Source: an uncultured bacterium (GTDB lineage Bacteria > Acidobacteriota > JAQAZP01). Taken from it: 64,000 bases of DNA. The position numbers and the translations under genes were made by a program. Where the stretch lies: positions 36 through 64,035 of the forward strand of contig CBESOE010000007.1 in assembly GCA_965531145.1 (NCBI GenBank), read 5' to 3'. Numbering within the stretch: the stretch's first letter is position 1; every line of letters starts with the position of its first letter. Of the stretch, positions 15,997 to 41,300 are shown piece after piece. The notes beneath the pieces are model-generated. The model was given only the letters and a program-made list of their open reading frames with translations. It had not been told where the DNA came from and ran no database searches.

Positions 15997-16014
15997 CGGA
16001 GGGCTTTTCCGCAC

Positions 16015-19961: not shown

Positions 19962-20040
19962 GCCCGGTGGACCGAAACAGGATATCCGGGGTGTCCGGCG
20001 GGGCTCTCCCGGTGACGATTGGCAGGTCACAGGAGTGGCG

Positions 20041-20946: not shown

Positions 20947-21011
20947 ACAGCTCCCGATAACGATGTATCGTGCGCGGCCGGCGGGCCGGCCCGAGAGGAG
21001 TGGATCACACG

Positions 21012-21284
21012 ATGAGCGAGGATGACAAGTCGCTTTCCCTGAAAATGAAGAACCTGATCGTCAACCGGCTGAAGCTGGAGATCGAACCCGAAGAGATCGA
21101 GAATGACCAGACCCTGTTCGGTGAAGGGCTGGGCCTCGATTCCATCGATGCCCTCGAACTGGTGCTTGGCCTGGAACAGGAGTTCGGGGTCAAGATCGAG
21201 GACGAGGAGGTGGGGGTCAAGGCCTTTGCCTCCATCGATGCCCTGGTCGCCTTTGTCAAGGAGAAGGGTGTTCAATCCGCATGA
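21012..21284 (+). CDS. acpP: Acyl carrier protein
   Basis: About 90 aa and acidic. Phosphopantetheine attachment motif GLDSIDALEL. RBS GAGGAG upstream. Confidence 0.85.
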   Translation: MSEDDKSLSLKMKNLIVNRLKLEIEPEEIENDQTLFGEGLGLDSIDALELVLGLEQEFGVKIEDEEVGVKAFASIDALVAFVKEKGVQSA

Positions 21285-24265: not shown

Positions 24266-24296
24266 ATGGCCGCACCGGCGGCGGCGGAGGAGAGCG

Positions 24297-24779
24297 GTGG
24301 GAACCGAGAACAGCCCCCTGGGACGGCGCAACGCGGATGGCTGGTGGGAACTGAGGCTCCGTGTCCGCTTCTCCGAGGTCGATTCTTACGGGGTGGTCTG
24401 GCACGGTCGCTACCTCGCCTGGTTCGAGGAGGCGCGCAACGACCTGGCCCGCGGCTACGGGTTTACCCCGTCGGTGCTGGCCCGGAGCGGATACCAGCTG
24501 CCGGTGCGGGATGTTTCCCTGACCTTCAAATCACCGGCCGGCCTCGACGACGAGGTGCTGGTGGGCATTCTCTTCCATCCCACGGAAACCGCACTGATCG
24601 AGTTTGAATACCGGGTGGTGGATGCGGAATCCGGGCGGCTGATGGTCACCGGTAAGACCCGGCAGGTGGTCACGCGGGTTGATCACGAATTGTTGCTGAC
24701 CTACCCCCGGCCGATCCGGGAGGCCCTGGACCGTCTCAGGCAGGACCAGTCCGCATCGGGGGGCAACCATGAGCGGTGA
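24297..24779 (+). CDS. 4HBT/YbgC-type hotdog acyl-CoA/acyl-ACP thioesterase
   Basis: RFSEVDSYGVVWHGRYLAWFEEAR is the YbgC/4HBT catalytic-region signature. 160 aa. Confidence 0.65.
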   Translation: MGTENSPLGRRNADGWWELRLRVRFSEVDSYGVVWHGRYLAWFEEARNDLARGYGFTPSVLARSGYQLPVRDVSLTFKSPAGLDDEVLVGILFHPTETALIEFEYRVVDAESGRLMVTGKTRQVVTRVDHELLLTYPRPIREALDRLRQDQSASGGNHER

Positions 24780-25728
24780 ACGGAACGGCGATGCAGACCG
24801 TGCCCGCGTCCGCCCGGTCTGTCCCTCCTGCCGCAATTCCCTGGCGGCGGAGAGTGACGGGCCTTCCACCTGTTCGTCCTGCGGCGCCGTCTATTCCCGC
24901 ATCCCCTCCGGCCATCTGCGGCTTCTGCCCGGGGATGCCGGTGGCTTTCGGGACTGGTGGCTCGACGATGAGCAGAAACGGGCCCGGTTCATGGGCCAGT
25001 ATGTTGAACGCGAGGAAGCGGGGGAGCGGCGGCTGGCCCGGGAGTTCCTGCTCCCCCTGACCCGGCAGCTGGCCGGCCAGGGGCCGCTGCGGCGGGTGCT
25101 CTCCGTGGGCTGCGGTTCCGGTGAGGATCTGGAACTGCTGCGTGGAGCCGGCCTGGACACCTGCGGTGTGGACAGCGGCGGGCGCACCCTGCGCTGGGGG
25201 GACAAGGAACGTTCTCCGGACCGTTACTTCATGGCCGACGCGCTGCAGCTGCCGTTCACCGACGGCGAATTTGACCTGGCCTATTCCCTCGGGGTCATCG
25301 AGCACGTGGGCACGGTGGGGGACAGCCTGGAACTGGCCGCGGATGCCGGTGAACTGCGCCGGCGGTTTGCCGCTTCGGTGGCCCGGGTGGTTCGGCCCGG
25401 GGGCTGGATCTTCATCAGTTGCCCCAATCGCACCTTTCCCTTTGACTTCGCCCACGGCGCCGGACGTTTCGGGTTCCGCTTTCACGGTCCCGGAGACTTC
25501 CTCCTTTCCTACGGTGACGTGAAGCGGCTGTTCATCGACCATGCGGGCTGCCAGTCGATCCGGCCGCTCTCCATGAAGGGCTATCTCGACCTGGCCCAGG
25601 CCGCTGCCGGCGGGGGGATGCTGATGCGGATGGCCGCGCCGCTCTTCGGCCTTTACTTGCATGCATTGCCGCGGCCTCTTTATACTTCTCCGCTATACCC
25701 GGCTGTATTGGCCCTTATCAAACGCTGA
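24769..25728 (+). CDS. Class I SAM-dependent methyltransferase with N-terminal Cys4 zinc-ribbon
   Basis: CPSCRN...CSSCG ribbon. Motif I VLSVGCGSGEDL. Methyltransf_11-like post-I region (ADALQLPFTDGEFDLAYS). Confidence 0.7.
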   Translation: MSGERNGDADRARVRPVCPSCRNSLAAESDGPSTCSSCGAVYSRIPSGHLRLLPGDAGGFRDWWLDDEQKRARFMGQYVEREEAGERRLAREFLLPLTRQLAGQGPLRRVLSVGCGSGEDLELLRGAGLDTCGVDSGGRTLRWGDKERSPDRYFMADALQLPFTDGEFDLAYSLGVIEHVGTVGDSLELAADAGELRRRFAASVARVVRPGGWIFISCPNRTFPFDFAHGAGRFGFRFHGPGDFLLSYGDVKRLFIDHAGCQSIRPLSMKGYLDLAQAAAGGGMLMRMAAPLFGLYLHALPRPLYTSPLYPAVLALIKR

Positions 25729-25742
25729 ACAGCGGAGCGACG

Positions 25743-26798
25743 ATGATCAAGCGAAACATCTGTGTGGTCACCTCCCACGTGCCGATGGTGTTCGGCGGGC
25801 ACCTGATCATCGCCCGTTCACTGGTCAGCGCCCTCAAGGACATGGGCTACAACTCGGATGTGATCTACACCCCCCAGAACCGTTTCGGGCGCCAGCTCTC
25901 GGCCTACCTGGCCAACCGGCTCACCGATGTGGGCCGTACCGGCGGCGACGAGGTGGTGGACCAGATCATCTCCCTGCGCTACCCCAGCTATGCGGTCAAG
26001 CACCCGCTCCACGTCTGCTGGCTGAACCACCGCATGCGCGAATACTACGATCTCTGGGAAGATTTCCTCGGGGTGATCCCCACCGGCAAGGGCAAACTCA
26101 AGGAGCGCTTCCGCCGCCGGCTGATCCAGCGGCTGGACAACCACCTGCTGAAGCGCAACGTGAAGAACCTCTACGTGATTTCGGGGACGATCAGGAAACG
26201 GCTGGAAACCTGGGGCGGGATCCCGGCCCAGGTGCTGCTGCCGCCGCCGCCCCTGGGCCGGGACTACCACACCGACAGTTACGAGAACTTCATCTTCACC
26301 GTGTCCCGCCTGCACAAGCTGAAGCGGATCAACCTGCTGCTGGACGCCTTCATGCTGGTGCGCGACACCGACGTCAAGTGCCTGATCGCCGGCGAGGGCG
26401 ACGAATACGACCGGCTGGCCAAGCGGATCAAGGACAACGATCTGGAGGGGCGGGCCATTCTCCTCGGCCGGGTGAGCGACCAGGAACTGGCCGACTACTA
26501 CGCCCGCTGCCGGGCGGTTTTCTTCGGGCCGCGGAACGAGGACTTCGGCTTCGTCACCATCGAGGCCTTCCGCAGCCGCAAGTGCGTCATCACCTGCCAT
26601 GACAGTGGCGGCCCGCTGGACCTGGTGGAAGACGGTGTTTCGGGTTTTATCACCCGGCCCGATCCCACCAGGATCGCCGAGCGGATCGACCAGCTGGTGG
26701 CCGATCCGGGCCTGGCCGAACGGATGGGCCAGGCGGGGTACGAGGCGAGTCTGCCGGTCACCTGGGAGAACGTGGTGCGGACACTGGTGAAGATATGA
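25743..26798 (+). CDS. Glycosyltransferase family 1 (GT4, GT-B fold)
   Basis: The C-terminal half carries the GT1 EX7E-type region (GFVTIEAFRSRKCVITCHDSGGPLDLVEDGVSGF). Confidence 0.75.
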   Translation: MIKRNICVVTSHVPMVFGGHLIIARSLVSALKDMGYNSDVIYTPQNRFGRQLSAYLANRLTDVGRTGGDEVVDQIISLRYPSYAVKHPLHVCWLNHRMREYYDLWEDFLGVIPTGKGKLKERFRRRLIQRLDNHLLKRNVKNLYVISGTIRKRLETWGGIPAQVLLPPPPLGRDYHTDSYENFIFTVSRLHKLKRINLLLDAFMLVRDTDVKCLIAGEGDEYDRLAKRIKDNDLEGRAILLGRVSDQELADYYARCRAVFFGPRNEDFGFVTIEAFRSRKCVITCHDSGGPLDLVEDGVSGFITRPDPTRIAERIDQLVADPGLAERMGQAGYEASLPVTWENVVRTLVKI

Positions 26799-27577
26799 TG
26801 ATCTCCGCGGGGCAACCGGCCCATCTCACGGTGGTGATCCCGGCCTACAACGAGGAGAAGCGGATCGGACCGACCCTGGAACGGATCTGCGGCTACCTGG
26901 AGAAGCGTTCCTATCCCTGGGAGATCGTGGTGGTCAATGACGGCAGCAGGGACGGGACGGTCCAGATCGCCAGGGAACTGCTGGCCGGCTGTGAACACCA
27001 CACGGTGATCGACCGCAAGTTCAACCGGGGCAAGGGCTACTCGGTGCGGCAGGGAATGCTGGCCGGCCGCGGGCGCTTCCTCCTCTTTTCCGACGCCGAT
27101 CTCTCCACGCCCATCGAGGACGTGGAGCGACTGCTGCCCCCCCTGGAGTCCAGGGAGGTGCAGGTGAGCATCGGTTCCCGGGCACTGCGTGACTCCCGGG
27201 TGGAGGTACACCAGCCCTGGTGGCGTGAGACCATGGGCAAGAGCTTCAACCTCTTCGTGCGGCTGATCGCCCTCGGCGGCCTCCACGACACCCAGTGCGG
27301 GTTCAAGTGCTTTACCCGCGAGGCGGCAAAGGCCATCTTCAGCGTGGCCCGCATCGACGGCTTCGGTTTTGACGTGGAAGCCCTGTACCTGGCCCGCAAG
27401 TTCGGCTACGGGGTCAAGGAGATCGGTGTGCGCTGGGTCAACTCGCCCGATTCGAAGGTCCACCCGCTCTCCGATTCGTCGCGGATGCTGGCCGATCTGC
27501 TGCGCATCCGTTTCACCGACCTCCGGGGAGGATACCGGTCCGGAAACGGCCTGGATCGCCGGGGGCGGCAAGGTTGA
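26795..27577 (+). CDS. Glycosyltransferase family 2 (polyprenyl-phosphate beta-glucosyltransferase-like)
   Basis: VVIPAYNEEKRI...VVVNDGSRDGT...FSDADLSTP are the GT-A signatures. Overlaps the GT1 stop (ATGA). Confidence 0.8.
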   Translation: MMISAGQPAHLTVVIPAYNEEKRIGPTLERICGYLEKRSYPWEIVVVNDGSRDGTVQIARELLAGCEHHTVIDRKFNRGKGYSVRQGMLAGRGRFLLFSDADLSTPIEDVERLLPPLESREVQVSIGSRALRDSRVEVHQPWWRETMGKSFNLFVRLIALGGLHDTQCGFKCFTREAAKAIFSVARIDGFGFDVEALYLARKFGYGVKEIGVRWVNSPDSKVHPLSDSSRMLADLLRIRFTDLRGGYRSGNGLDRRGRQG

Positions 27578-27605
27578 TGATTTCCGGGAAAGGGAGGATG
27601 GCACC

Positions 27606-29291
27606 ATGCTCAGATGCACGGGATCCGGCAACAACTCCTGGCGGCTGTTCTGTCTCCTGCTGACCGTCCTGCTGCCGGCCTGGGGCTGGCTTGCCGGCTG
27701 CGGTACCCCGCCCGCTGAACAACCGGCGGTGGAGGGCCCGGTGCGTGGCGGGACCATGGTGGTGGGCTGGACCAACGACGCCGACGCGCTGAACCCGGTG
27801 GTCCAGCAGACCATGCTCGCCTCCCACGTCGATACCCTGATCTATCCCAACCCCACCACCGAGGTCTTCGAGGACTGCCGCCTCACCGTACAGCCCCTGC
27901 TGGCCGAGAGCTGGACCTTCGGCGAGGACGGCCTGTCGCTGACCATGAAACTGCGCACGGACGTGACCTGGGATGACGGTACGCCGGTCACCGCGGACGA
28001 CGTGATCCTGACCAACCAGCTGATGGCCGATCCGGATTCGGCCAGCCCGCGTTTCAACCAGACCGAGCGCATCGCCGCGGTGGAGAAGATCGACCAGCAA
28101 ACGGTGCTCTTCCGTTTCACCGAGCCCTACGACCAGGAAACCCAGCTCTACCACGCATCCCAGGACCTGCTGCCGGCGCACCTCTTCCGCGATGCCGACC
28201 GGAAGAACCTGCGCCGCCACCCGCTTAACGAAAACCCGGTGGGCGCCGGACCCTACCGGCTGGAACGCTGGGAGCGCAACCAGGAACTGGTGCTTTCCGC
28301 CAATGCCGAAGCCACCCTCACCGACCCGCCCTACATCGAGCGGGTGGTTTTCCGTGTTATCCCCGAGTACACCACCCGTCTCACCGAGTTGATCGTCGGG
28401 CGGTTGGACGTGATGGACGGACTGCAGCCGGAGGATGTGGATCGGCTGAAGCGGGAAAACCCCGAGATCCGCATCCTGCCCCGGGGCTGGCGTTTCATGG
28501 AATACGTGGCCTGGAACAACCTCGACCCGCTTTTCTCCGACCCGCGGGTGCGTCGGGCGCTGACCATGTGCATCGACCGTGACCTGCTGATCCAGGTGCT
28601 GCTCACCGGTGGCGGGGAGTGCTTTGGCCGGCCCTGCACCGGTACCATAACCCCGGAGCTCTGCGGGGCCTGCAACGAAAATATCGAGCCGCTGCCCCAC
28701 GACCCGAAAGCGGCCCGGGCCATGCTCAACGACCTCGGTTGGAAGGACCGTGACGGCGATGGTGTGCTGGACAAGGACGGCCAGCCGTTCGCCTTCACCC
28801 TCAGGACCAGCGCCGGCAACCCGCGCCGCGAACAGGCCAGCGTATTGATCCAGGCCCAGCTCAGGGAAGCCGGCCTGGATGTGGAGCTGGAGCAGCTGGA
28901 GGGGGTGGTGTTGCACGAAAAGATGCGGAACAAGGACTTCCAGGCCGTGCTGAGCGGCTGGTCCGTGGGACTCTATGTCGAGCCGCGGTCCTTCTGGCAC
29001 AGTGGCGACGAGTATGTCTACAACTTCACCTCCTACAGCAATGCCTCGGTGGACCGGCTGATCGAGGCCGGGGAGGGGGAGACCGACATCGAGGCGGCCA
29101 ACGCCATCTGGCACGAGGTGCAGGAAATGATTTACGAAGATCAGCCTTACACCTTCCTCTACTGGGTGAACAATCTGATGGCGATCCACCAGCGGTTCGA
29201 AGGGGTGGAGGCCAACCTGCTCACTCCGCTCTACCACCTGGAGCGATGGTGGGAGAACCCCGACTGGGAGCGTGAGTTGGACGGCAGTTAG
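27606..29291 (+). CDS. ABC transporter substrate-binding lipoprotein, family 5 (Opp/Dpp/Nik-like)
   Basis: Lipoprotein signal LAGCGTPP. SBP_bac_5-like length and conserved stretches. RBS AAGGGAGGA before the ATG at 27606. The ORF track start at 27369 overlaps the GT2 gene and is rejected. Confidence 0.8.
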   Translation: MLRCTGSGNNSWRLFCLLLTVLLPAWGWLAGCGTPPAEQPAVEGPVRGGTMVVGWTNDADALNPVVQQTMLASHVDTLIYPNPTTEVFEDCRLTVQPLLAESWTFGEDGLSLTMKLRTDVTWDDGTPVTADDVILTNQLMADPDSASPRFNQTERIAAVEKIDQQTVLFRFTEPYDQETQLYHASQDLLPAHLFRDADRKNLRRHPLNENPVGAGPYRLERWERNQELVLSANAEATLTDPPYIERVVFRVIPEYTTRLTELIVGRLDVMDGLQPEDVDRLKRENPEIRILPRGWRFMEYVAWNNLDPLFSDPRVRRALTMCIDRDLLIQVLLTGGGECFGRPCTGTITPELCGACNENIEPLPHDPKAARAMLNDLGWKDRDGDGVLDKDGQPFAFTLRTSAGNPRREQASVLIQAQLREAGLDVELEQLEGVVLHEKMRNKDFQAVLSGWSVGLYVEPRSFWHSGDEYVYNFTSYSNASVDRLIEAGEGETDIEAANAIWHEVQEMIYEDQPYTFLYWVNNLMAIHQRFEGVEANLLTPLYHLERWWENPDWERELDGS

Positions 29292-29317
29292 GGCCCGGGT
29301 AACTTGACGGAGGACGG

Positions 29318-30286
29318 ATGGTCCGCTTCATCCTCAAGAGACTGCTCCATGCCGTGCCGATTCTGCTCGGTGTCTCGATCCTTCTCTTTTTTGTCCTGCA
29401 CCTCGCCCCCGGAGACCCGTCCAGCTACTACTTCAACCCCGACAGTTCACCGGAGACCCAGGCCCGGATGGCGAAGAACCTCGGGCTGGACCAGCCGTTG
29501 GGTGTGCAGTTCCTGCGCTGGATCTCGGCCTTTGCCCGCTTTGACTTTCAATACTCGCTGATCCACCACCGGCCGGTGACCGGGCTGATCCTCGAGGCGC
29601 TGCCCCGGACCCTGGTCCTCTCTTCCGCCGCACTGCTGCTGATGTTCGGCGGCGGTATCCTGCTGGGTGTGTTCTCCGCGGCCCGGCGCAACTCCCTGGC
29701 CGACCACGTGGTGAGCGTGGTTTCGCTCTTCTTCTACTCCATGCCTACCTTCTGGCTGGCCCTGATGCTGGTGCTGCTTTTTGCCCTGCTGCTGCCCATC
29801 ATGCCCCCGTCCGGCCTCAGTTCGCCCAATGCCGACCTCTTGCCGCCCCTGCAGCGGCTGCTGGACCGCTTGTGGCACCTGGTGCTGCCGGCGCTGACCC
29901 TTGGCCTCTCCGGCGCGGCGGGTATCGCCCGTTACGCCCGGGGCAGCCTGCTGGAGGTCGCCGGCCAGGACTACATCCGCACGGCCCGGGCCAAAGGCCT
30001 CTCCGAACGCCAGGTACTTTTCAAGCACTCGCTGCGCAACGGGCTGATCCCGGTGATCACCCTCTTCGGGCTCTCGCTGCCCTTCCTCTTCGGCGGCTCG
30101 GTGCTGGTGGAGTGGATCTTTGCCTGGCACGGCATGGGGTGGCTGATGGTCAGCGCCATCGGCCAGCGGGATTACCCCCTGGTCATCGGCTGTACCTTCT
30201 TCTACAGCCTGATCGTGGTGCTGGGAAACCTGGTGGCTGACCTGCTGTACCGCGCGGCCGACCCGCGGATCAGGAGGCAGTCATGA
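29318..30286 (+). CDS. ABC transporter permease (DppB/OppB-like)
   Basis: N-terminal MVRFILKRLL...GDP motif typical of DppB/OppB. Six TM helices. BPD_transp_1 EAA-like loop. Confidence 0.85.
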   Translation: MVRFILKRLLHAVPILLGVSILLFFVLHLAPGDPSSYYFNPDSSPETQARMAKNLGLDQPLGVQFLRWISAFARFDFQYSLIHHRPVTGLILEALPRTLVLSSAALLLMFGGGILLGVFSAARRNSLADHVVSVVSLFFYSMPTFWLALMLVLLFALLLPIMPPSGLSSPNADLLPPLQRLLDRLWHLVLPALTLGLSGAAGIARYARGSLLEVAGQDYIRTARAKGLSERQVLFKHSLRNGLIPVITLFGLSLPFLFGGSVLVEWIFAWHGMGWLMVSAIGQRDYPLVIGCTFFYSLIVVLGNLVADLLYRAADPRIRRQS

Positions 30287-31131
30287 ACGGCCCATTTGCC
30301 CGGTTCAGGCAAAATCGAGTGGCCCTGGCCGGGCTGTGCCTGATCGTCACTATGTATCTCGCTGCGCTGATGGCCCCGGTGCTGGCGCCCTACGCCCCCG
30401 ACGAATCCATCGACCTGCTCAGCAACCGGAACTCGGCCCCTTCGGGCAGGCACATCCTGGGCACCGACCGCTACGCCCGGGACATCTTCAGCCGGCTGCT
30501 CTACGGTGCGCGGATCTCGCTCACCGTGGGGCTGGCGGCGGTGGGCCTCTCGCTGGTCATCGGTACCCTGGTGGGGCTGCTGGCCGGCCAGTTCGGCGGC
30601 TGGGTGGACAGCCTGCTGATGCGCCTGGTGGACCTGCTGATCTCCTTCCCCCGGCTGGTGCTGCTGCTGGCCGTGGCGGCGTTCTTCAATCGTTCGATCC
30701 TGCTGATCATGGTTCTGCTGGGCCTCACCGGCTGGATGACCACCGCCCGGGTGATCCGCGGCGAGATCCTCGCCCTGCGCGAGCGGGAGTTCGTCCTCGC
30801 CGCCGGCGCCCTGGGCGCTTCACCGTTCCGGGTGGCCTTCCGCCACCTGCTGCCAAACTGCCTGGCGCCGCTGGTGGTCACCGCCACTCTGGGCCTGGGC
30901 CAGACCATCCTGGTGGAGGCGGGACTCAGCTTCCTTGGCCTGGGCGTGCCGCCGCCCACCGCCAGCTGGGGGGCGATGGTCAACGAGGGGCGGCACCTGC
31001 TGCTGGAAGCGCCCTGGATCACCACCTTCCCCGGTCTGGCCATCGTTGGGGCCGTGCTCTGCTTCAACCTGGTGGGCGACGCCCTGCGGGATGCCTTCGA
31101 TCCCCGCCTGGACGGGGTGAAGGAGGGATAG
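30283..31131 (+). CDS. ABC transporter permease (DppC/OppC-like)
   Basis: OppC-type N-terminal domain and a BPD_transp_1 region (LGASPFRVAFRHLLPN). Overlaps the upstream stop (ATGA). Confidence 0.85.
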   Translation: MNGPFARFRQNRVALAGLCLIVTMYLAALMAPVLAPYAPDESIDLLSNRNSAPSGRHILGTDRYARDIFSRLLYGARISLTVGLAAVGLSLVIGTLVGLLAGQFGGWVDSLLMRLVDLLISFPRLVLLLAVAAFFNRSILLIMVLLGLTGWMTTARVIRGEILALREREFVLAAGALGASPFRVAFRHLLPNCLAPLVVTATLGLGQTILVEAGLSFLGLGVPPPTASWGAMVNEGRHLLLEAPWITTFPGLAIVGAVLCFNLVGDALRDAFDPRLDGVKEG

Positions 31132-31139
31132 GCGGGGCG

Positions 31140-32243
31140 ATGAACGTTCTCTGCTACGTCTCGGGGCACGGTTACGGGCACCTCACCCGGACCATCGCGT
31201 TGATCAACGCGATGGCCAGGCTTGACCCGGAAACCGGTTTCTTTGTCCGCACCACCGCACCCCGCTGGCTGCTGGAGGCCTGTGTCGCCGTCCCGGTGGA
31301 ATACCGGGAGGTGACCATCGACGCCGGGGTGCTGGAACGGGGGTCCCTGCACCAGGACTGCGAGGGGACCTTGGCCCACTGTGCGGAGATCCTCGGACAG
31401 CGAGACCGGATCATCGAACGGGAAGCCTCCTGGTGCTCCGCCCATCACATCTCGGTGATCGTCAGCGACATCCCGCCCCTGGCCTCGGAGATCGGTGACC
31501 GGGCCGGCATTCCGGTGGTGGCCATGGGCAACTTTTCCTGGGACTACATCTACCAGCCCTGGGAGACGGCCAACCCACAGTACGCCGGACTGGTGGATGA
31601 GATCCGCGGGGCGTATGACAAAACCAGCCTGCTGCTGCGACTGCCCCTGGCCCACGAAATGGACGCCTTTCCCCGTCAGCGGGACATACCCTTCATCGCC
31701 CGGCGTCGCCGTTGGGCGGCAGGAGAGGGGAGAGGCCGGCTGGGAATTCCCGACCACGAGTCACGGCCGCTGGCCCTGGTGGCCATGCGCATGGGTCACC
31801 ACCTGGCGGACGCCACCAACCGGCTGGCCGCCGGTGGCGAGTTCGTGGTATTGACCTTTGATCACCGGGGCCTTCCACCGGCCGAAAACCTCAGGGTGGT
31901 GCCCCGGGAACTGCAGAACAGGTTTCCCGATGTGCTGGCCACGGCGGATGTCCTGATCTCCAAGCTGGGATACAGCATGTGCGCCGAGACCGTGGCCGGC
32001 CGAACCCCGATTCTCTATGCCCCGCGGTTCGACTACCGCGAGCACGATGTGCTGGCCGCCGGTATCGGCCGCTACGTGCCGGCGTTGCCCATGCCCGAGG
32101 CCGATGACGGTGGCCGCAGCTGGCCCGAACTGCTGCACCGGTTGCTGGCCACGCCCATGCCATCGGCCCCGCCGGTGGACGGCGCCGACACCGCCGCCCG
32201 CCTCGTCCTCCAGATGGGGACAGCTACCTGCTTGGCTAAGTGA
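31140..32243 (+). CDS. Glycosyltransferase, GT-B fold (MurG/MGT GT28-like family)
   Basis: N-terminal Gly-rich loop VSGHGYGHLTR and a C-terminal nucleotide-sugar-binding-like half. The ORF track fuses 268 out-of-frame codons upstream. The ATG at 31140 follows the DppC-like stop. Confidence 0.5.
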   Translation: MNVLCYVSGHGYGHLTRTIALINAMARLDPETGFFVRTTAPRWLLEACVAVPVEYREVTIDAGVLERGSLHQDCEGTLAHCAEILGQRDRIIEREASWCSAHHISVIVSDIPPLASEIGDRAGIPVVAMGNFSWDYIYQPWETANPQYAGLVDEIRGAYDKTSLLLRLPLAHEMDAFPRQRDIPFIARRRRWAAGEGRGRLGIPDHESRPLALVAMRMGHHLADATNRLAAGGEFVVLTFDHRGLPPAENLRVVPRELQNRFPDVLATADVLISKLGYSMCAETVAGRTPILYAPRFDYREHDVLAAGIGRYVPALPMPEADDGGRSWPELLHRLLATPMPSAPPVDGADTAARLVLQMGTATCLAK

Positions 32244-32268
32244 TTGAAGCATAAGGACAAAGGAAAAC

Positions 32269-32407
32269 CGGGGACAGTTACCTCTTTAAGTGACATTCTG
32301 ATAGGATGAGCTTCAATCGAATTGAATCGAATTGGTAACTGTCCCCCGTTTTTTTAAGCTGTTGATATAATGATACTTAACGTTTCAGGTAGCTGTCCCC
32401 ATTTTTT
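32269..32407. promoter_or_regulatory. Structured intergenic element: terminator hairpin, promoter with extended -10, and a repeated GGTA(A/G)CTGTCCCC motif
   Basis: There is a 13-nt inverted repeat, GGGGACAGTTACC (32270-32282) against GGTAACTGTCCCC (32334-32346). It is followed by T8. The loop carries a nested TTCAATcgaATTGAA palindrome and an AATCGAATTG tandem. A third direct copy, GGTAGCTGTCCCC (32388-32400), is followed by T6. TGATATAAT (extended -10) lies at 32363-32371. Confidence 0.45.
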
Positions 32408-32475
32408 CTGAAACACTGAAATCAGACTTGCGTATTGTATTATGACATAGGTACAATTCACCGGAGGCTGATCTG

Positions 32476-33207
32476 ATGAGCGGAACGCAGGCGGGGCAGG
32501 AAAACGGCCTGATTTTCGACGCCCGGGGCCTGACCAAGGTCTACCACATGGGCGAGGTGGAGGTTCACGCCCTGCGTGGCGTGGATTTTCAGCTGCGTCA
32601 GTCGGAGTTCTCCGTGCTGCTGGGGCCCTCGGGCAGCGGCAAATCCACCCTGCTCAACATCCTCGGCGGGTTGGATACCCCCACTGCCGGCCAGGTCTTT
32701 TACCGCGGCAAAGAGATCACCCTGGTGGGCGACGCCGAGCTGACTCAGTATCGCCGGCACCATGTCGGTTTTGTCTTCCAGTTCTACAACCTGATTCCCA
32801 GTCTCACCGCCCGGGAGAACGTGGCCCTGGTCACCGAGATCGTGCCCGAACCGCTGACCCCGGTGGCGGCGCTGGAACTGGTGGGGTTGGGAGACCGGGT
32901 GGATCACTTCCCGTCCCAGCTCTCGGGCGGCGAGCAGCAGCGGGTGGCCATTGCCCGGGCCATCGCCAAACAGCCCGACGTGCTGCTCTGCGACGAGCCC
33001 ACCGGCGCCCTGGACGTCTCTACCGGCATCGTGGTGCTGGAGGCCATCGAGACGGTGAACCGCGAGCTGGGCACCACCACCGCGGTGATCACCCACAACG
33101 CGGCCATTTCCGAGATGGCCGATACGGTGTTGCGGCTCTCCAACGGCAAGATCGCTTCGGTGGAGCACAACACGACCAAGATCCACCCCCGAGAGCTTCA
33201 CTGGTGA
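32476..33207 (+). CDS. ABC transporter ATP-binding protein (MacB/DevA-type)
   Basis: Walker [13 protein letters not shown] signature [14 protein letters not shown]. Walker [20 protein letters not shown] upstream. Confidence 0.85.
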
Positions 33208-33211
33208 CACC

Positions 33212-35575
33212 ATGCGACCGCTGAATCTCAAGCTGTTTCGCGACCTGTGGCAGATCAAGGGCCAGGCCCTGGCCATCAGCATGGTCATCGCCGCCGGGGT
33301 GGCGATGTTCGTGGCCTACATCAGCACCTTCCAGTCGCTGGACCTGACCCAGAACACCTACTACGAGCGCTACCGCTTCGGCGACGTGTTCGCCTCGCTG
33401 AAGCGGGCCCCCCTGCGGCTCCGCGAGCGGATCGAGGAGATCCCAGGCGTGGCCCGGGTGGAGACCCGGGTCGTGGTGGGGGTGAACCTCGATGTGGAGG
33501 GATCCGAGGAGCCGCTCACCGGCCGGCTGATCTCGATTCCCGAGCTGGACCGGGCGACGCTGAACGACGTCTTTCTGCGCAAGGGCCGCTACATCGAGCC
33601 CGACCGGCAGGACGAGGTGCTGGTCACCGAGGGGTTCGCCCTGGCCCACGGCCTGGAGCCGGGGGACAGCGTGGCCGCGGTGATCAACGGCCGCCGGCGC
33701 GAGCTGGAGATCGTCGGCATCGCCCTCTCACCGGAGTATGTCTACAACATTGCGCCCGGGGCGATGATGCCCGACGACAGCCGCTTCGGCATCTTCTGGA
33801 TGGAGCAGAAAGCCCTATCCGCCGCCTTTGACATGGAGGGCGGTTTCAACGACGTCGCCCTCTCCTTGATGCCCGGGGCCCAGGAGGACGAGGTGATCAC
33901 CCGCCTCGACCGCCTGCTGGAACCGTACGGCGGGCTGGGAGCCATTCCCCGCGCGCTCCAGCCGTCCCACTTCTACCTCGATGCCGAGCTGGCCGGCCTC
34001 AAGGGCGCCGGGCTGATGATCCCGGTAATCTTCTTTGCCGTGGCCGCTTTCCTGCTCAACGTGGTGTTGCTGCGCATCGTGGCCGTCCAGCGGCCGCAGA
34101 TCGCCGCGCTCAAGGCGCTGGGCTACACCAACGTCGAGATCGGCATGCACTACACCGGCTGGAGCCTGGTGGTCTCGCTGGTGGGCGCCGTCATCGGGGT
34201 GGCCAGCGGCGCCTGGCTCGGTTCGGCCATGACCACGCTCTACGGCGATTTTTTCCGCTTCCCGATCCTCGACTACCGGCTGGCCCCCGCCGTGCTGGTG
34301 GGGGCGGTGGTGGTGAGCGTCATCGCCGCTGTGCTGGGCGCTTTCGGCTCGGTGAAGCGGGCGGTGAAGCTGCCCCCGGCCGAGGCCATGCGCCCCGAAC
34401 CACCGTCGGGCTACGGTGTGAGCTGGGTCGAACGGCTGGGCCTCAAGCGGTTCTTCAGCCAGCCGGCTCGGATGATCATGCGCAACATCCAGCGGCGCCC
34501 CTGGCGCACCTTTGCTTCCATCACCGGCATCTCGTTCGGTGCGGCGATGATGGTGGTGGGGATGTTCTGGATCGACGCCATGGACCTGATGATGGACGTG
34601 CAGTACAACGTGGCCCAGCGCCAGGACATCACGGTCACCTTTGTGGAGCCGGCCTCTTCTCGCTCGCTGCACGAGATCGAGCGGATGCCCGGCGTGGTCT
34701 ACGCCGAGACGCTCCGTTCGGTGCCGGTGCGGCTGCGCTACGGCCACCGCTCGCGCATGGCTTCCATCACCGGCCTTGAAGCCGGGGCGCGTCTGAGCCG
34801 GGTGGTGAACACCGACTTCCGCCCGGTGACCATCCAGCCCCAGGGCCTGGTGCTCTCCTCCAAGATGGGTGAGATCCTGGGCGTGAAAGCCGGCGACGAA
34901 CTGATCGTCGAGGTGCTGGAGGGCCGGCGGCCCAAACGCACGGTGCTGGTCACCGAGCTTGTGGACGAGTTCCTTGGCACCTCGGCCTACATGGAGAACT
35001 CGGCGCTCCATGCCATGTTGCGCGAGGGGCCAAGCCTCTCCGGAGCCTTTATCCAGGTCGATTCGATCCACGCCGATGAGCTCTACCGGCGGCTCAAGCT
35101 GGTGCCCTTTGTCGCCGGGGTGGCACTCAAGTCGGCGGCGGTGGACAGTTTCTACGACACCATCGGCGAGAGCCTGGGCATCATGATCTTCTTCAATGTC
35201 CTCTTTGCCGGGATCATCGCCTTTGGCGTGGTCTACAACGCGGCACGGATCTCGCTTTCCGAGCGGGGCCGCGAGCTGGCCAGCCTGCGAGTGATGGGCT
35301 TCACGCGGGGGGAGATCTCCTTTATCCTGCTGGGGGAACTGGCCCTGGTGACCCTGGTCTCCCTGCCCGTGGGCATGGCGCTGGGTTACTGGCTGTCGGC
35401 GCTGGTGGTCACCGCTTACGACACCGAAGTGTACCGTTTTCCGCTGGTGGTCTCATCGAAAACATACGCCTACGCAGCGCTCACCGTGGGCGTGGCGGCG
35501 CTGATCTCCGGGGTGGTGGTCAAGCGTAAACTGAATAACCTCGATCTCGTTGAAGTTCTGAAGACCAGGGAGTGA
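33212..35575 (+). CDS. Large ABC transporter permease with two FtsX domains (DevC/YbbP-like, about 10 TM)
   Basis: 787 aa built as two repeated modules. Each has a TM helix, a periplasmic MacB-PCD-like domain and an FtsX 3-TM bundle (e.g. [15 protein letters not shown]; [18 protein letters not shown]). Confidence 0.8.
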
Positions 35576-36777
35576 TCAATCAAATGAAACCGAAGCGTAA
35601 AACCGTCATCATCTGGTCCATTGTCATCCTGCTGGTCCTGCTCCTGGCCTGGGCCATGCGCCCCAAGCCGGTGGAAGCCGACTTTGCTTCCATCACGCGC
35701 GGTTCAATCCAGGTGACCATCGACGAGGAAGGGGAGACCCGGGTGCGCGACCGCTTCACCGTGTCGGCGCCCATGGCCGGCCGTGTGCTGCGTATCGAGC
35801 TGGAGCCCGGTGAGCCGGTGGTGGGCGGCGAGACCGTGGTGGCCACCTTCAGGCCCACCGATCCGGTGCTGCTGGATGCCCGCACCAGGGCCCAGAATGA
35901 GGCCCGGGTGGGGTCGGCCAAGGCCGCCCTGGGCACGGCCGAAGCCGAGGTCGAGCAGGCCCGGGCCGAACTGAATTATGCCCTTGGCGAGGAGAAGCGC
36001 TACCGCCGGCTGGCCGAGGACGGGTTCGTTTCCAGCGAGCGGCTGGAGAAGGCGGAGCTGGATGCGCGGACCAGGGAAAAGGGCCTCTCCGCCGCGGAGT
36101 TTTCAGTTCGTTCGGCCGAGCAGGAACTGGCCGTTGCCCGGGCATCGCTGGTGGAAGCCCCCAGGGCCGGCGACAAGCGGAACATCATCATCCGCGCCCC
36201 GGTGGACGGGGTGGTGCTGCAGCGCTTTCACTGGAGCGAGGGGGTGGTGCCGGTGGGCGAACCGCTGATCGAGATCGCCGACCCCGCCGACCTGGAGATC
36301 GTTTCCGACCTGCTCTCCTCCGATGCGGTGAAGGTCCGCCATGGCCAGAAGGTGCTCATCGAGCGCTGGGGCGGGGAAAAGAACCTGGAGGGTGTGATCC
36401 GCCGCGTAGAGCCATACGGCTTCACCAAGTACTCCGCCCTGGGCGTGGAAGAGCAGCGGGTCAATGTCATCGTCGATTTCACCAATCCCCGGGAGGCATG
36501 GGCCGCCCTGGGGGATGGCTATCGGGTGGAACTGCGCATCGTGATCCAGGAGGCCGATGACGTCCTGCTTGTGCCCACCAGCAGCCTCTTCCGCGTGGAC
36601 GAGGACCAGGCCGTGTTTGCCGTGCGCGACGGCAAGGCCACGCTCACCACCGTGGAGATCGGCAAGCGCAACGGCCTTCACGGCGAACTGCTCTCAGGCC
36701 TGGAGGAAGGCGCTACGGTTCTCGTGCATCCCGGTGATGCCATCGAGGACGGGGTGAAGGTGGCGGAGCGGTCGTGA
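35572..36777 (+). CDS. HlyD-family membrane fusion protein (MacA/DevB-like periplasmic adaptor)
   Basis: N-terminal TM anchor. Long coiled-coil region (AEAEVEQARAELNYA...). Beta-barrel/lipoyl-like RAPVDGVVLQ motif. Confidence 0.8.
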   Translation: MINQMKPKRKTVIIWSIVILLVLLLAWAMRPKPVEADFASITRGSIQVTIDEEGETRVRDRFTVSAPMAGRVLRIELEPGEPVVGGETVVATFRPTDPVLLDARTRAQNEARVGSAKAALGTAEAEVEQARAELNYALGEEKRYRRLAEDGFVSSERLEKAELDARTREKGLSAAEFSVRSAEQELAVARASLVEAPRAGDKRNIIIRAPVDGVVLQRFHWSEGVVPVGEPLIEIADPADLEIVSDLLSSDAVKVRHGQKVLIERWGGEKNLEGVIRRVEPYGFTKYSALGVEEQRVNVIVDFTNPREAWAALGDGYRVELRIVIQEADDVLLVPTSSLFRVDEDQAVFAVRDGKATLTTVEIGKRNGLHGELLSGLEEGATVLVHPGDAIEDGVKVAERS

Positions 36778-36853
36778 CCCCGGACCACATCAAGGAGTAT
36801 TTGAGAGGGTTCATCAACGCCGTGATTAGATCCGTGCGTAGCTTTTCCTATCC

Positions 36854-37096
36854 TTAACGATCCCTGCCGATTTTTCTACGCAGTCCATACAGACCGGCAA
36901 TGCCACTGCCCAGGAGAATCATCGTCGCCGGTTCGGGGACCGGGGTCGGTGATGCATGGGTAGGCCGCTTTGAGCCGCCAGGGCCGGTCTGGTTGCCGAA
37001 TCCGTCATAACTGTCTGCCATCACCACTGTTTGACCGATCAGGAGAATCCCCAGAACCAGTAACAGCACCATCATGAGTTGATGCGAATGACTCAT
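36854..37096 (-). CDS. PEP-CTERM sorting-domain micro-protein (80 aa; mature region about 27 aa)
   Basis: Signal peptide MSHSHQLMMVLLLVLGILLIGQTVVMA, then DSYDGFGNQTGPGGSKRPTHASPTPV. The C-terminus is VPEPATMILLGSGIAGLYGLRRKIGRDR: PEP motif, TM helix and an Arg/Lys cluster. RBS GGAGGACAGAG lies immediately upstream of the ATG at 37096. The longer 164-codon ORF in the track starts at a GTG and is rejected. Confidence 0.7.
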   Translation of the reverse strand: MSHSHQLMMVLLLVLGILLIGQTVVMADSYDGFGNQTGPGGSKRPTHASPTPVPEPATMILLGSGIAGLYGLRRKIGRDR

Positions 37097-37174
37097 CTCT
37101 GTCCTCCCCGTGGTCCGCTTTTGATGAGTGATTGCGGACTCGTCGAGATCGATCAATACCCGCTCAGTCAACAC

Positions 37175-37190
37175 TGCAACCCTCGTGCCA
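37175..37190 (-). promoter_or_regulatory. Sigma-54 (RpoN) -24/-12 promoter TGGCACGagggTTGCA upstream of the PEP-CTERM micro-protein
   Basis: The minus strand reads TGGCACG-N4-TTGCA, a full match to the sigma-54 consensus (TGGCACG-N4-TTGCW). It lies about 80 nt upstream of the ATG at 37096. Confidence 0.55.
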
Positions 37191-37344
37191 ATTGATCTAC
37201 CAATGTAATCTATTGCAAGAAAGTGGCTTGTTGACTTCGGGCAATTCCGTTCCACCCGGATTCGCTTCCCAGCAGGAAAAGATTTTCCATCGGGAGTTGG
37301 AAAAATAGTTCCGTCGATGAATCGTCGTTGTCCCACCTGATTGT

Positions 37345-38102
37345 TCACGGCGAGGTGCTGTCGGGGCTCGAGGAGGGGGACACGGTGATCGTGCAGCCGG
37401 TGATCAGGGCATCGGAGCCGTCCGAACAGGAGATGCCGCCGGCACCATGCGGGGAACCGTATTCCGGCCTGGTGCCGCGGATGGTGCAGCCGATGATTTC
37501 CGGGGAGGAATCATTGCAGAAGATGGCACCGGCGTATGAAGTTTGAAAAAGAGCGATGTTGTCCTCGATCACGCAGTTTTCGATCAGCGCATCGGCGTTG
37601 TAATAGCAGAGAATAGCCAAACCAGGGCCCCTGGCGCTGCAGTCCGTGATGACGCAATCTTTGATAGTGGGCGACGCCACGTAACAATTGATGCCGCCCC
37701 CACCGCCATTTGTCCACAGGTGTGCGAAATCGTCAACCAGGCCGTTTTTATGGTGAATCCCTCAACCACCGAATCCCGGCCTTCGCCGTTGTGGAAGTAA
37801 AATCCCCGGTGCTGATCTGAAACAGTGCCGTCGCAGTCGATGATGCAGGTTTCCGCGCCGTTCCCGGAGCGGACCGTGATCGCCCTGCCCTGGAAATCGA
37901 GGTCCCGGTTGCCCGGGCCTTCGTATACACCGTCAGCCACCAGCACGGTGTCTCCATTCACCGCAGCGTCAATGCCGGCCTGGATGGTGGACTGATCGGC
38001 CGGGACACGGATCTCGGCGGCCAGGGTGGCGGGGGAGTGAAGGAGGAGAAGAGTGAGTGAATAAAATGCGGCCCATTTCATGCGCTGCGCACACATTGTC
38101 AA
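37345..38102 (-). pseudogene. Secreted right-handed parallel beta-helix repeat protein interrupted by a -1 frameshift in an A5/T5 homopolymer (or a sequencing error)
   Basis: The N-terminal part (38102 down to about 37750) and the C-terminal part (37761 down to 37345) are in different frames. Both carry beta-helix repeats (GFTIK..; ASPTIKDCVITDC; ALIENCVIEDN; IIGCTIRG; ALITGCTIT). The frames rejoin if one A is added to the cataaaaacggc tract (plus-strand T5 at 37745-37749). Signal peptide MKWAAFYSLTLLLLHSPATLAAE. Confidence 0.55.
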
Positions 38103-38346
38103 AACCTCCCTGATTTTCGTCTATTCCTGCCAGGAAATCTATTGTCAGCCATTGTACATGAATCAATCAGATCCGTTGAAGAGGAAATTTATGACAATTA
38201 TCTGAAGAATAAATTTCTGGTTCGGTGGCGGGCAAGTGATGATATAATTCCCGTTCACGCCGTGGTTGCCCATCTGTGACCGAGCGTTGCCGGGGAATGG
38301 TCCGGGCAGCGCCTTGGCCCGATTTCTATTTCACTGGAGTTTTGTC

Positions 38347-41300
38347 ATGCGTAACAGCTTTGTCCAGCGGTTGGCCCTCGGCCTGCTGCTCATCCCCATC
38401 CTGGCCTGTCTGGTGGTCGTCTTCGTCAACGAGAGCGGAGGCGCTGAGCCGGAAATCGTGTCTGCCACCGCTCCGGCGGTTCCCATGCTCGGCAAAAACC
38501 CCTCGCCCACGGAGATCGTCCAGTGGAAGCAGGACCGCAAGGAGTTCAAGCGGGAGCGGGAAGAGTGGCTGGAAAGCCTGCACTATGCCGCGCCGGGCAC
38601 CGACTGGAAGGCCATCGAGGCAAGCAACCGGCTGAACAACATCCAGCGCCGGCAGGAACTGGACGCAGCGCAGAGCCGGGGAGCAGCGCCGGTACGGGGA
38701 ACCCAGTGGAACGAGGTGGGCAGCAACAACCAGGCTGGCCGCACCCGCTGGTCGGCCTGGAGCCCGGATGACGACATCCTCTACGTCGGTTCGGACAACG
38801 GCGGTGTCTGGAAGGGAAACCTCAACGGCAGCAGCTGGCAGCCGATCAGCGACGACATCGGCTACGGCGCCAACCAGGTCTATGTCACCCCGGGCAGCCC
38901 CAAGGTGATTACCTACTGCGGCTACAACGGTGAGATCTATTTCAGCACCAATGAGGGCAACACCTGGACCGAGCCCGGCGGCTTCGAAAGCGAAGACCTC
39001 TGGGAGATCGTCCGCATCGTTCTCGATCAGGGCAGCCCGAGAACGCTCTACCTGATGGCCCGGGGCGACCACGAGACCCACGGCACCGGTTTCCACCTCT
39101 ACCGCTCCACCGACGGCGGCCTGAATTACAGCTATGTTTACGACGCGGGCAACTGGCCCCGCGCCGACATCTGGATCGACCGGGTGGCCCCCGGCCCGCT
39201 CTACATGATGGTGGGCCCCACCATGTTCGTCTCCGACAACGGGGGCAGCAGTTTCACCGAACTGGGCACCGCCCCGGTGCAGGCGGCCTACGTGGAGCTG
39301 GCCGGCTCCGAGGCCGGGGCGCCCACCTTCTACGCGGCCCTGCGAACCAACAGCGGCAGCTGGCGGATGTACCGCTCCACCGACGGCGGGATGAACTGGC
39401 AGGACCGGCACGCGATCAACGATTTCTGGGAGAACGTCGGCGCCTCGATCACTGATCCAGACCTGGTTCTCTTTGCCGGGGTGGAGGTCTGGCGTTCCAC
39501 CGACGGCGCCGGCAACTTCTCCATCGTCAATGGCTGGGGTGAGTATTACGGCGACCCGGAGAACAAGCTGCACGCCGACAACCCCAGCATGCAGACCCTC
39601 TGGATCGACGGCCAGGAGGTCTTCCTGATCAACACCGACGGTGGCTCCTACAAGTCATACGACGGTGTGGAGACGGTACAGAACATCTCGCTCTCGGGCC
39701 TGGGCATCAGCCAGTACTACGACATCTTCACCAGCGCCACCGACCCCTACCTGGTGGCCGCCGGCGCCCAGGACCAGGGCTACCAGGTCTCCAACCCGGA
39801 CGAGACCAGGGATCCCTTCCTCAACTTCGACCAGATCATCAGCGGCGACTACGGCCACCTGACCTCCACCAACCGCAACCACAACTTCCTCTTCAGCGTC
39901 TACCCGGGGTTCATCCTGGTTCAGGTCACCGAGGAATACCGGAACACCTGGGGTCTGGACTTTCCTTCCGGCGCCACCTACAACGCCTGGATGCCCCCGC
40001 TGCTGGCCGATCCGCTGGACGAGTACAACTTCTACTTCTGTGCCGACCACCTCTGGTACTACGACCGGATCGACCAGTCCAGAGACTACAGCATGACCGA
40101 ACTGCCCTACGATTTCGCCGCCGACGGCGGCTCGTTCGTCTCCGGGCTGGCCATCTCCCCGGCAGACAACAACCGCTGGTATACGGTGGGCAATGCCGGT
40201 AACTTCTGGTATTCCAGTGACGGTGGTGTCAACTGGACAATGTCCGAGGACACCGGCCCGGGAAACAGCTACCTCTACGGCACCTCGATCATCGCCTCGC
40301 CCACCGACCCGCTCACCTGCTGGGCCGGGGGCAGCGGCTACGACAACCCGGCGGTCTACCGCACCATCGACGGCGGGGTGACCTGGGAGGCCATGGGTGC
40401 GGGGCTGCCCTCCACCCTGGTCTACATGCTGGCCTTTGACAACGAACGGGACCAGCGGATCTTTGCCGCCACCGAGGCCGGGCCCTACGAGTTCGACACC
40501 TACACCCGGACCTGGTCCAGCATTCTCGGCACCGAGGCACCACTCACCACCTACTGGGCGGTTGAAGGGGTGCCCGAGCTGGGCGTGGTCCGTTTCGGCA
40601 CCTACGGCCGGGGCATCTGGGACTACACGCCCGAACCGACGATCAACACCGGTGTCCTCACCGGCGCCGGGCCGGCCTATGACAACCCGCCCCGGGTGCA
40701 CCTCTTCCCGCCGGAGGACGGTGCCGAGCCGGCCTACTCATTCACGGCGTACGGTGCTGACCATTACGGCGCCAATGTGGCCGCCGGTGATGTGACCGGC
40801 GATGGTTTCGACGAAGTTATCACCGGCGCTGGGCCGGGGGACATTTTCGGTCCCCATGTCCGCGGATTCACCGTGGCCGGGGCCCCGATCCCCGGGCTCA
40901 GTTTCCTCGCCTACGGCACCAACAAATACGGGGTGAACGTGGCGGCCGGGGATATCGACGCCGATGGCTATGACGAGGTGATCACCGGCGCCGGTCCGGG
41001 CGCCGTCTTCGGCCCCCACGTGCGGGCCTTCGACTACGATGGGACTCCCGGTGTCACCTCGGTCTCCGGGGTGAGTTACTTTGCCTACGGGACGCTCAAA
41101 TATGGCGTCAACGTGGCTGCCGGCGACCTGGACGGTGACGGCTATGACGAGATCGTCACCGGCGCCGGCCCGGGCGCGGTGTTCGGACCCCACGTGCGCG
41201 GCTGGAATGTGGACGGCGGGCCGGCAACCTCCATGTCCGGGGTCAGCTACTTCGCCTACGGGACACTGAAGTACGGTGTCAACGTGGCCTGCGGCGATGT

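Follow-up and report, generated by a model that had tools for sequence, protein, structure and literature searches.

A three-gene type VII ABC efflux module beside a lipid and glycosyltransferase gene cassette in an uncultured acidobacterium

Does an ATP-binding cassette (ABC) exporter whose genes follow a set of lipid-synthesis and glycosyltransferase genes export the product of those genes, or is it a module of its own? This question is raised by a 64,000-nucleotide stretch of DNA from an uncultured bacterium of the Acidobacteriota (contig CBESOE010000007.1 of assembly GCA_965531145.1; the whole stretch is called the window). In the window, genes for an ABC ATPase, a permease and a membrane-fusion adaptor stand behind a cassette of type II fatty acid synthase/polyketide synthase (FAS/PKS)-like enzymes and glycosyltransferases (Table 1). 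An earlier reading of the DNA sequence (the original prediction) took the three genes for a MacAB/DevBCA-like exporter of the cassette product. We propose that the three genes are an autonomous, separately transcribed, tripartite-type ABC efflux module, and we give this reading a probability of about 0.6. In architecture, the operon belongs to the type VII (MacB-superfamily) ABC exporters, and it encodes a membrane-fusion adaptor as well. The distinction has a practical side: judged by adjacency alone, an efflux module that is widespread and self-contained would wrongly be annotated as a glycolipid exporter of one pathway.

Pfam domains and open reading frame (ORF) calls bear out all three proposed components, namely the ABC ATPase, the 787-aa permease with a double FtsX domain and the HlyD-type adaptor. 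The ATPase is a separate polypeptide in which Walker A, the signature (LSGGEQQR), Walker B and the H-loop (ITHN) are intact. In a comparison with PDB sequences, it matched the nucleotide-binding domains of MJ0796, LolD, YbbA and MacB at E values of 1e-44 to 5e-52. The operon had been described as overlapping. The genes are indeed densely packed on one strand; however, the ATPase and permease genes are separated by a 4-nt gap (33208-33211), and the overlap of the adaptor gene depends on the choice of its start codon. With GTG at 35572 it overlaps the permease gene by 4 nt, and with ATG at 35584 an 8-nt gap remains. GGGAG precedes the ATG, and on related contigs the gene callers placed the start there (products of 397-400 aa). 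On module records, the RefSeq labels are ABC transporter ATP-binding protein, permease and HlyD family efflux transporter periplasmic adaptor subunit. The operon can already be annotated as an ABC efflux operon; it is an ordinary one, from a common subfamily.

Table 1. Positions of the pump genes, the signals in front of them and other features of the window.
Feature	Position	Strand	Remarks
ABC ATPase gene	32476-33207	+	243 aa; PF00005 ABC_tran, E 3e-34
Double-FtsX permease gene	33212-35575	+	787 aa; two PF02687 stretches
Membrane-fusion adaptor gene	35584 (ATG, 397 aa) or 35572 (GTG, 401 aa) to 36777	+	HlyD_3, E 8e-19
Shine-Dalgarno sequence GGAGG	32463..32467	+	8 nt before the ATPase ATG; invariant in five relatives
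ECF-sigma-type promoter-like site	32409..32434	+	TGAAAC (-35), 16-nt spacer, CGTA (-10)
Near-invariant 27-nt block CGTATTGTATTATGACAyrGGTACAAT	32431..32457	+	2-3 variable columns in five relatives; flanks diverge
Nested palindromic repeat	32216..32401	arms 32216, 32270 (+); 32334, 32388 (-)	four exact 13-nt copies of GGGGACAGYTACC
GT-B-like gene directly upstream of the pump	~31140-32243		Glyco_trans_1_3, E 1.6e-3, weak
SBP_bac_5, OppB-like and OppC-like genes	~27600-31131		no ATPase gene; between the GT2 and GT-B-like genes
Clear GT4 and GT2 genes	25743-27577		
Aryl-polyene-like type II FAS/PKS content	19933-25728 (also L088:1-4626)		AT, ACP, dehydratase, KS and KS-like, 4HBT thioesterase, methyltransferase
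Second type VII ATPase	15325-15996		LolD-like, 216 bits, below cutoff
Second type VII permease (FtsX/MacB_PCD)	16015-17136		373 aa; best model LolCE, 82 bits, below cutoff

By hydropathy as well as by an AlphaFold model, the permease has eight transmembrane (TM) helices, arranged twice as one TM helix, a periplasmic domain and three TM helices, with no linker helices. The first periplasmic domain comprises ~230 aa and the second ~200 aa, and a short cytoplasmic linker joins the halves. It should be noted that the AF2 model has a predicted local distance difference test score (pLDDT) of 71 and a predicted TM-score (pTM) of 0.61. Aligned from end to end, the halves share 25% identity (E 2e-13). 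Therefore, the permease is internally duplicated and lacks the two linker helices that YbbP and BceB carry (PMC5985334). An 8-TM form of the ABC3 porters has already been catalogued (PMC3654945). The adaptor has an N-terminal TM anchor. It passed the TIGR01730 RND_mfp model (104.7 bits; cutoff, 94.9), whereas other curated models failed. It aligns to Escherichia coli MacA end to end (E 2e-8), and the alignment covers the helical-hairpin region with no large deletion. Homologues of the adaptor bear the Pfam YknX_C domain. The context of the module was surveyed in 80 species-representative genomes, and the adaptor gene lies directly 3' of the permease gene in 76 of these 80 orthologous loci. The operon thus carries the marks of a type VII (MacB/FtsX-superfamily, ABC3) system, that is, two PF02687 stretches, the 2 x (1+3) TM arrangement, the fold and a MacB/LolD-like ATPase, as well as the mark of a tripartite pump, a co-encoded periplasmic adaptor (by TIGR01730, HlyD_3 and the MacA alignment).

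To which of the named systems does the operon belong? The curated models of these systems all stayed below their cutoffs. For the ATPase, the top model was LolD (TIGR02211; 204 bits, cutoff 307.75), followed by DevA (TIGR02982; 184.9 bits, cutoff 295.8), YbbA (NF007879; 183.8 bits, cutoff 336), FtsE (TIGR02673; 177 bits, cutoff 264.85) and MacB (NF007826; 171 bits for the ATPase part alone, cutoff 966). The LolCE model (TIGR02212) reached 24.3 bits (cutoff 362.45), the DevB model (TIGR02971) 57.4 bits (cutoff 129) and the MacA model (NF008606) 56 bits (cutoff 342). In the same scan, neither the DevC model nor the FtsX-equivalog model matched the permease, and the model of the acidobacterial duplicated orphan permeases (ADOP; TIGR03434, cutoff 622.3 bits) did not match it at E<=0.01; this model was weakly matched by the other FtsX protein of the window.

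The DevBCA-HgdD system, which exports heterocyst glycolipids in Anabaena, has the same kinds of parts: a separate ATPase, an FtsX-type permease and a membrane-fusion protein. However, the dev genes are ordered B-C-A instead of A-C-B, DevC is a single 4-TM unit, and the cyanobacterial orthologues of the present family form a separate lineage. With DevA and DevB below cutoff and no DevC match, we rejected DevBCA membership. The unusual gene order and the fused double-FtsX permease had both been pointed out in the original prediction, correctly. MacAB-TolC, the macrolide/enterotoxin pump of E. coli, resembles the operon in its type VII fold, where TM1 and TM2 are separated by a large periplasmic domain, in its membrane-anchored adaptor and in having its outer-membrane partner outside the operon. 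In contrast to the present arrangement of a separate ATPase and fused permease halves, MacB is an ATPase fused to a homodimerising 4-TM permease. The nucleotide-binding domain is here encoded by a gene of its own and the MacA and MacB scores are far below their cutoffs, and MacAB membership was also rejected. FtsEX membership was set aside as well (FtsE below cutoff, no FtsX-equivalog match). YknWXYZ of Bacillus subtilis is another MacB-type ABC system with a membrane-fusion protein (YknX), but it is Gram-positive, without an outer membrane, and has a single 4-TM permease. The ADOP proteins are, like the present permease, duplicated, FtsX-type, ~800 aa long and common in Acidobacteriota. ADOP permeases are not known to have a linked ATPase and are named orphan permeases, whereas in the present family an ATPase and an adaptor accompany the permease; the 787-aa permease, which has no TIGR03434 match, is not a member. 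Thus, the label MacAB/DevBCA-like exporter is right in that the operon is of the MacB superfamily and has an adaptor, and goes too far if it is taken as membership of either system. The function of a type VII system is defined by its partner protein (PMC12646458). By this rule, it is the cognate adaptor that puts the operon, in function, among the MacAB/DevBCA-like pumps.

The same comparisons bear on a different reading, in which the operon is a Lol- or YbbAP-like extractor that hands a hydrophobic molecule to a periplasmic partner, or uses the adaptor as a scaffold, with no outer-membrane duct. A profile of 16 permease sequences matched LolE, LolF, YtrF and LolC alone among PDB sequences (E 2e-7 to 6e-3), with no YbbP match up to E = 1. 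In the fold comparison by Foldseek, the best match was E. coli YbbP (9ge6_A; TM-score 0.55, E 2e-19, 14% identity) with LolE next; further matches were LolE/C, BceB, MacB, Spr0694/5 and HrtB. Identity was 11-18% across these matches, and the E values for YbbP, LolE/C, MacB, BceB and HrtB ranged from 1e-9 to 2e-19. Moreover, LolD is the top ATPase model, the fused asymmetric halves resemble the LolC/LolE heterodimer, an asymmetric 4-TM pair with periplasmic domains served by a separate ATPase dimer, and a linked TolC gene was found at no locus. The YbbAP-TesA complex of E. coli, which acts in lipid hydrolysis, also has a separate ATPase and a single-chain double permease with two periplasmic domains. 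However, YbbP has 10 TM helices including the two linker helices (PMC5985334) instead of eight, and YbbAP has an esterase, TesA, as its partner in place of an adaptor (PMC12646458). In the Lol system, LolC and LolE are two proteins and no adaptor takes part, and the window holds a better Lol-like ABC/FtsX pair elsewhere (15325-17136). The Lol and YbbA models are far below their cutoffs, and the solved relatives are distant (11-18% identity). Above all, the operon includes an anchored MacA-like adaptor with a full-length hairpin region, and LolCDE, FtsEX and YbbAP use no such adaptors (PMC12646458). We consider an extractor of this kind quite improbable. Membership of LolCDE (LolD and LolCE below cutoff, adaptor gene in the operon) and of YbbAP (YbbA below cutoff, 8 instead of 10 TM helices, a membrane-fusion protein as the partner gene) was rejected. 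Grouping with LolCDE or FtsEX had been named beforehand as the outcome that would speak against a MacB/DevCA-type exporter; all Lol and FtsE models fell below cutoff. As far as sequence and the structural model can tell, the permease is about equally distant from all characterised type VII systems. A fused permease with asymmetric halves that works together with a hexameric-type adaptor would be a useful comparison for the mechanisms of MacAB and LolCDE.

The reading as an autonomous module can be compared with the distribution of the genes. The best 120 relatives of the permease are 61-100% identical to it and nearly all 787-789 aa long. Searched exhaustively, the 50%-identity cluster representatives gave 3419 matches at E<=1e-30, and full-length matches keep a length of 785-791 aa down to ~40% identity. 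In 70 of the 80 surveyed genomes the order is ATPase-permease-adaptor on one strand, and some of the exceptions are truncated at contig ends. Therefore, A-C-B is the fixed gene order of the module family. Among the genomes are members of Acidobacteriota, Planctomycetota, Cyanobacteria, Nitrospirota, Pseudomonadota (Beta- and Gammaproteobacteria), Bacteroidota and Deferribacteres; the median identity to the window proteins is ~71% for the ATPase, ~53% for the permease and ~48% for the adaptor. The ATPase is 91-94% identical inside the lineage of the window, and its median of ~71% was taken over 72 genomes. In an all-against-all clustering of the ORFs of the 80 loci, no other gene family stands beside the module in more than six, and no TolC, regulator or biosynthetic neighbour is conserved; the antisense shadows of the three genes alone clustered. 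Genes of the cassette are absent within 10 kb in the 80 loci, save generic matches to ketosynthase (KS), acyltransferase (AT) and GT2 families in one or two of them. Homologues occur on 76 plasmids, 32 of which are predicted to be conjugative. On Sinorhizobium meliloti pSymA and Acaryochloris marina pREB4, the permease gene is flanked by the ATPase and adaptor genes. The module family, which includes the pSymA copy, is sharply defined by a permease of ~787 aa and an invariant gene order. It is a large, length-conserved, common and apparently uncharacterised subfamily.

The plasmid-borne modules (S. meliloti pSymA at ~603-620 kb, loci L094 and L096; Acaryochloris pREB4, L095) adjoin an Hsp20 gene. 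The pSymA module also adjoins the site-2 protease gene SMa1126 and a gene for a PDZ-domain protein, which we take to be degP4; these neighbours are stress-related. An association with Hsp20, site-2 protease or DegP genes was considered for the module in general, and was not found in the 80 chromosomal loci. In two other loci with 70% permease identity (L085:1-3049 and L092:8538-11929), genes for a sigma factor of the extracytoplasmic function (ECF) type and a Ser/Thr-kinase/tetratricopeptide-repeat protein lie as a pair 4-6 kb from the module.

Is the pump transcribed separately from the genes upstream? The gap between the stop codon of the GT-B-like gene and the ATG of the ATPase gene is 232 nt long. 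It contains a palindromic repeat followed by a promoter-like block. The exact 13-nt arm of the repeat is present in four copies, against 0.26 expected by chance. The four arms pair as two nested perfect stems, the arms of each pair match via a compensatory C/T-G/A difference, and a T-run follows each hairpin (32347-32353 and 32402-32407). The folding energy of the repeat region is -97.5 kcal/mol, as compared with -63.6 kcal/mol for shuffled sequences (z = -7.6). The repeat most plausibly acts as a terminator or insulator of the upstream operon. Behind the repeat, the hexamer TGAAAC, the CGTA element and their 16-nt spacing are kept in all five available members of the lineage (the window and contigs L083, L088, L089 and L090): the spacer varies in sequence but never in length. 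TGAAAC-N16-CGTA has its sole exact match in the 64-kb window at this site. The SigW-class promoter consensus of B. subtilis has TGAAAC at -35 and CGTA at -10 (PMC5758882). A sigma-70-like scan also gave a match here, at 32416-32443. The ykn genes belong to the SigW regulon, and the likeness between the SigW-type consensus and the site in front of the pump is one of motif. Within the near-invariant 27-nt block are an ATTGTA-N12-TACAAT palindrome and the hexamer TATTAT; the block is a candidate operator or 5'-untranslated-region element. An inserted gene of 419 aa separates the ATPase gene of L089 from the GT-B-like gene, and the block comes after this insertion. Therefore, the block travels with the pump, not with the cassette. 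In 69-71 distant orthologous loci, no upstream 8-mer was enriched and the ATTGTA-N12-TACAAT palindrome was not found. Judged by these motifs and their conservation, transcription of the pump seems to start from an ECF-type promoter of its own that is specific to the lineage. A separately regulated transcript was what the original prediction had named as a finding against its export claim. This case is likely, given a terminator-like palindrome and then a promoter-like block that is kept in L089.

The hairpins had been read differently, as a structured leader of the pump operon at 32269-32407. The structure is real, but it spans 32216-32401, lies 5' of the promoter-like block and is a dispersed repeat. 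In an elaborated form of this reading, the region 32216-32407 is an attenuator or riboswitch in a pump mRNA that starts from a promoter further upstream; the very stable structure, the T-run behind each hairpin and the compensatory difference between the arms would all fit. However, the outer stem begins in the final codons of the gene upstream, whose stop lies at 32243, so that the first arm is coding sequence, and the conserved promoter-like block lies downstream of the hairpins. The GGGGACAG repeat is missing in L083 and L089, in which the pump and the promoter-like block are kept, and variants are present in L088 (11093-11284) and L090 (11124-11247); L083 has a short AT-rich hairpin and a T-run in its place. 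Furthermore, a metagenome scan for two arms 30-60 nt apart found the same arms around unrelated inner sequences on at least 119 contigs (L097-L215; at least 107 distinct elements), the arm is absent from all 80 genome loci, and an Rfam scan of 31000-38500 at E<=1 gave no match. Since the repeat is upstream of the promoter-like block, absent from L083 and L089 and dispersed, it is probably no leader of the pump operon, and the attenuator or riboswitch reading is highly improbable.

Some properties of the dispersed repeat were observed in their own right. Among the matches listed, the arms are GGGGACAGYTACC and GGTARCTGTCCCC with a constant 13-bp core, the inner stem (median 7 bp), the outer stem (median 4 bp) and the loop vary by locus, and the Y/R variant is complementary between the arms in 104 of 107 elements. 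At some loci (L112, L114 and L141), back-to-back arms form a perfect palindrome of 25-26 bp. Nested or tandem copies occur, and the same 76-nt element is present on more than 20 contigs of one metagenome. The outer flanks are inverted, not direct, and thus no target-site duplication is evident. The element may be related to repetitive extragenic palindromes (REP/REPIN-like), to miniature inverted-repeat transposable elements or to protein-binding sites.

If the three genes are an autonomous efflux module, the pump may work as follows. Two ATPase copies would drive a single fused, pseudo-heterodimeric type VII permease with 8 TM helices, which would take its substrate from the outer leaflet of the inner membrane or from the periplasm, and a MacB-like mechanotransmission through the two periplasmic domains would pass it into the anchored MacA-like adaptor. 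The adaptor, by analogy with MacAB-TolC, would dock to a TolC-like outer-membrane channel encoded elsewhere. The upstream operon would end at the terminator-like repeat, and the pump would be transcribed from its own ECF-type promoter. A TonB-dependent receptor and a PEP-CTERM protein are encoded in the window, and an outer membrane is thereby implied. The variable contexts, the plasmid carriage and the ECF-type motif favour a general stress, detoxification or envelope substrate over the cassette product.

Several results weigh against the autonomous-module reading. No match to PF02321 (OEP/TolC) was found among the ORFs of the window that were scanned, and the ORF clustering of the 80 loci showed no TolC-like gene conserved beside the orthologues. 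Therefore, the three-part assembly is assumed by analogy with macAB. In the case of macAB, tolC is also unlinked. Upstream of distant orthologues, ECF-like GAAC-N-CGT motifs occur at background frequency (7 of 69 loci versus 9%). The promoter and the terminator are proposed at the level of motifs, and read-through from the upstream genes is possible. Searches of the literature on fused FtsX permeases with adaptors, on YbbP relatives and on the S. meliloti locus tags SMa1118-1126 turned up no functional data for the module family. In addition, the cassette is followed by the pump on the same strand in all five lineage members, and no evident outer-membrane exporter is encoded in the cassette itself, so that the pump may have been recruited for the cassette product.

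These last two points lead to the reading in which the pump is a dedicated exporter of the cassette product and, like DevBCA-HgdD, moves a glycosylated lipid from the inner membrane to or across the outer membrane. The cassette consists of genes for a FabD-like AT, an acyl carrier protein (ACP), an ApeP-like dehydratase, two KS-type proteins, a thioesterase, a methyltransferase and glycosyltransferases (GT) of families GT4 and GT2, and continues with an SBP_bac_5 protein, OppB-like and OppC-like permeases and the GT-B-like protein. In relatives of the window, the dehydratase matches the Pfam ApeP-like family. Type II FAS/PKS-like enzymes and glycosyltransferases are thus together in the cassette, and DevBCA-type pumps export glycolipids; glycolipid export beside lipid and glycosyltransferase genes is the proposed analogy (PMC5985334). 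The order of cassette and pump has been kept in five members although the two relatives in which GatA was identified (L088 and L089) are 73-83% identical to the window in this protein (11405-12889) and the GT-B-like proteins are 68-76% identical; permease identity in the lineage is 85-93% and that of the cassette proteins 65-96%. The pump had been said to follow the glycosyltransferases immediately. This is partly so: the gene directly upstream is GT-B-like by a weak match, and an Opp-type binding protein gene and two permease genes lie between the clear GT4/GT2 genes and the pump. Distant GT-B homologues (36-40% identity) were considered as a marker of the cassette; they occur in unrelated contexts and were uninformative.

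Against dedicated export, the orthologous module is found in at least 70 genomes and on plasmids with no cassette nearby. The synteny is gone at a permease identity of 68-70%: the next-closest permeases (L085, L086 and L092) have entirely different neighbours. A downstream FG-GAP gene is also kept in at least three of the four relatives. Therefore, synteny extends over the region and does not single out the junction of cassette and pump. The promoter-like block after the terminator-like repeat, the gene inserted in L089 and the results with the Dev models also speak against this reading, as do transport genes nearer to the cassette enzymes, namely the SBP_bac_5/OppB/OppC trio and the ABC/FtsX pair at 15325-17136. 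Judged from the sequence, a terminator-like and a promoter-like signal intervene between cassette and pump and linkage across genomes is confined to one lineage, the reverse of what co-transcription would entail. The claim that the transporter exports the product of the upstream cassette thus falls back on adjacency in one lineage of five contigs, and elsewhere the module occurs without the cassette. Dedicated export is possible, with adjacency as its support, but unlikely. In a combined scheme, a large subfamily of pumps with a single-chain asymmetric 8-TM permease of LolCE-like halves and a MacA-like adaptor, found in many phyla and on conjugative plasmids, has in this deep-branching lineage come under an ECF-type envelope-stress promoter and been recruited for the export of the adjacent aryl-polyene-like glycolipid; we regard this scheme as quite doubtful. 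The autonomous efflux module is the reading that we prefer.

Several features of the surrounding region were also observed. The SBP_bac_5/OppB/OppC trio is kept in all four relatives and is an odd component for a lipid/glycosyl cassette. The second type VII pair (15325-17136) follows a GT2 gene (14634-15311) and a gene for an Amidase_3 protein and is without an adaptor gene; it is an alternative transporter candidate for the envelope products of the region. Outside the lineage, GatA is at most 58% identical, with matches from mixed phyla (Actinomycetota, Chloroflexota, Nitrospirota, NC10 and Firmicutes). From these identities, the source organism seems to come from a deep-branching lineage with sparse sampling. 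The region is flanked by an XrtA-system polysaccharide-deacetylase-like gene (19006-19902; TIGR03006, 205 bits, below the cutoff of 276) and by the gene for the PEP-CTERM protein (36854-37348, minus strand). This pair of genes suggests an exosortase-type surface system in the source organism.

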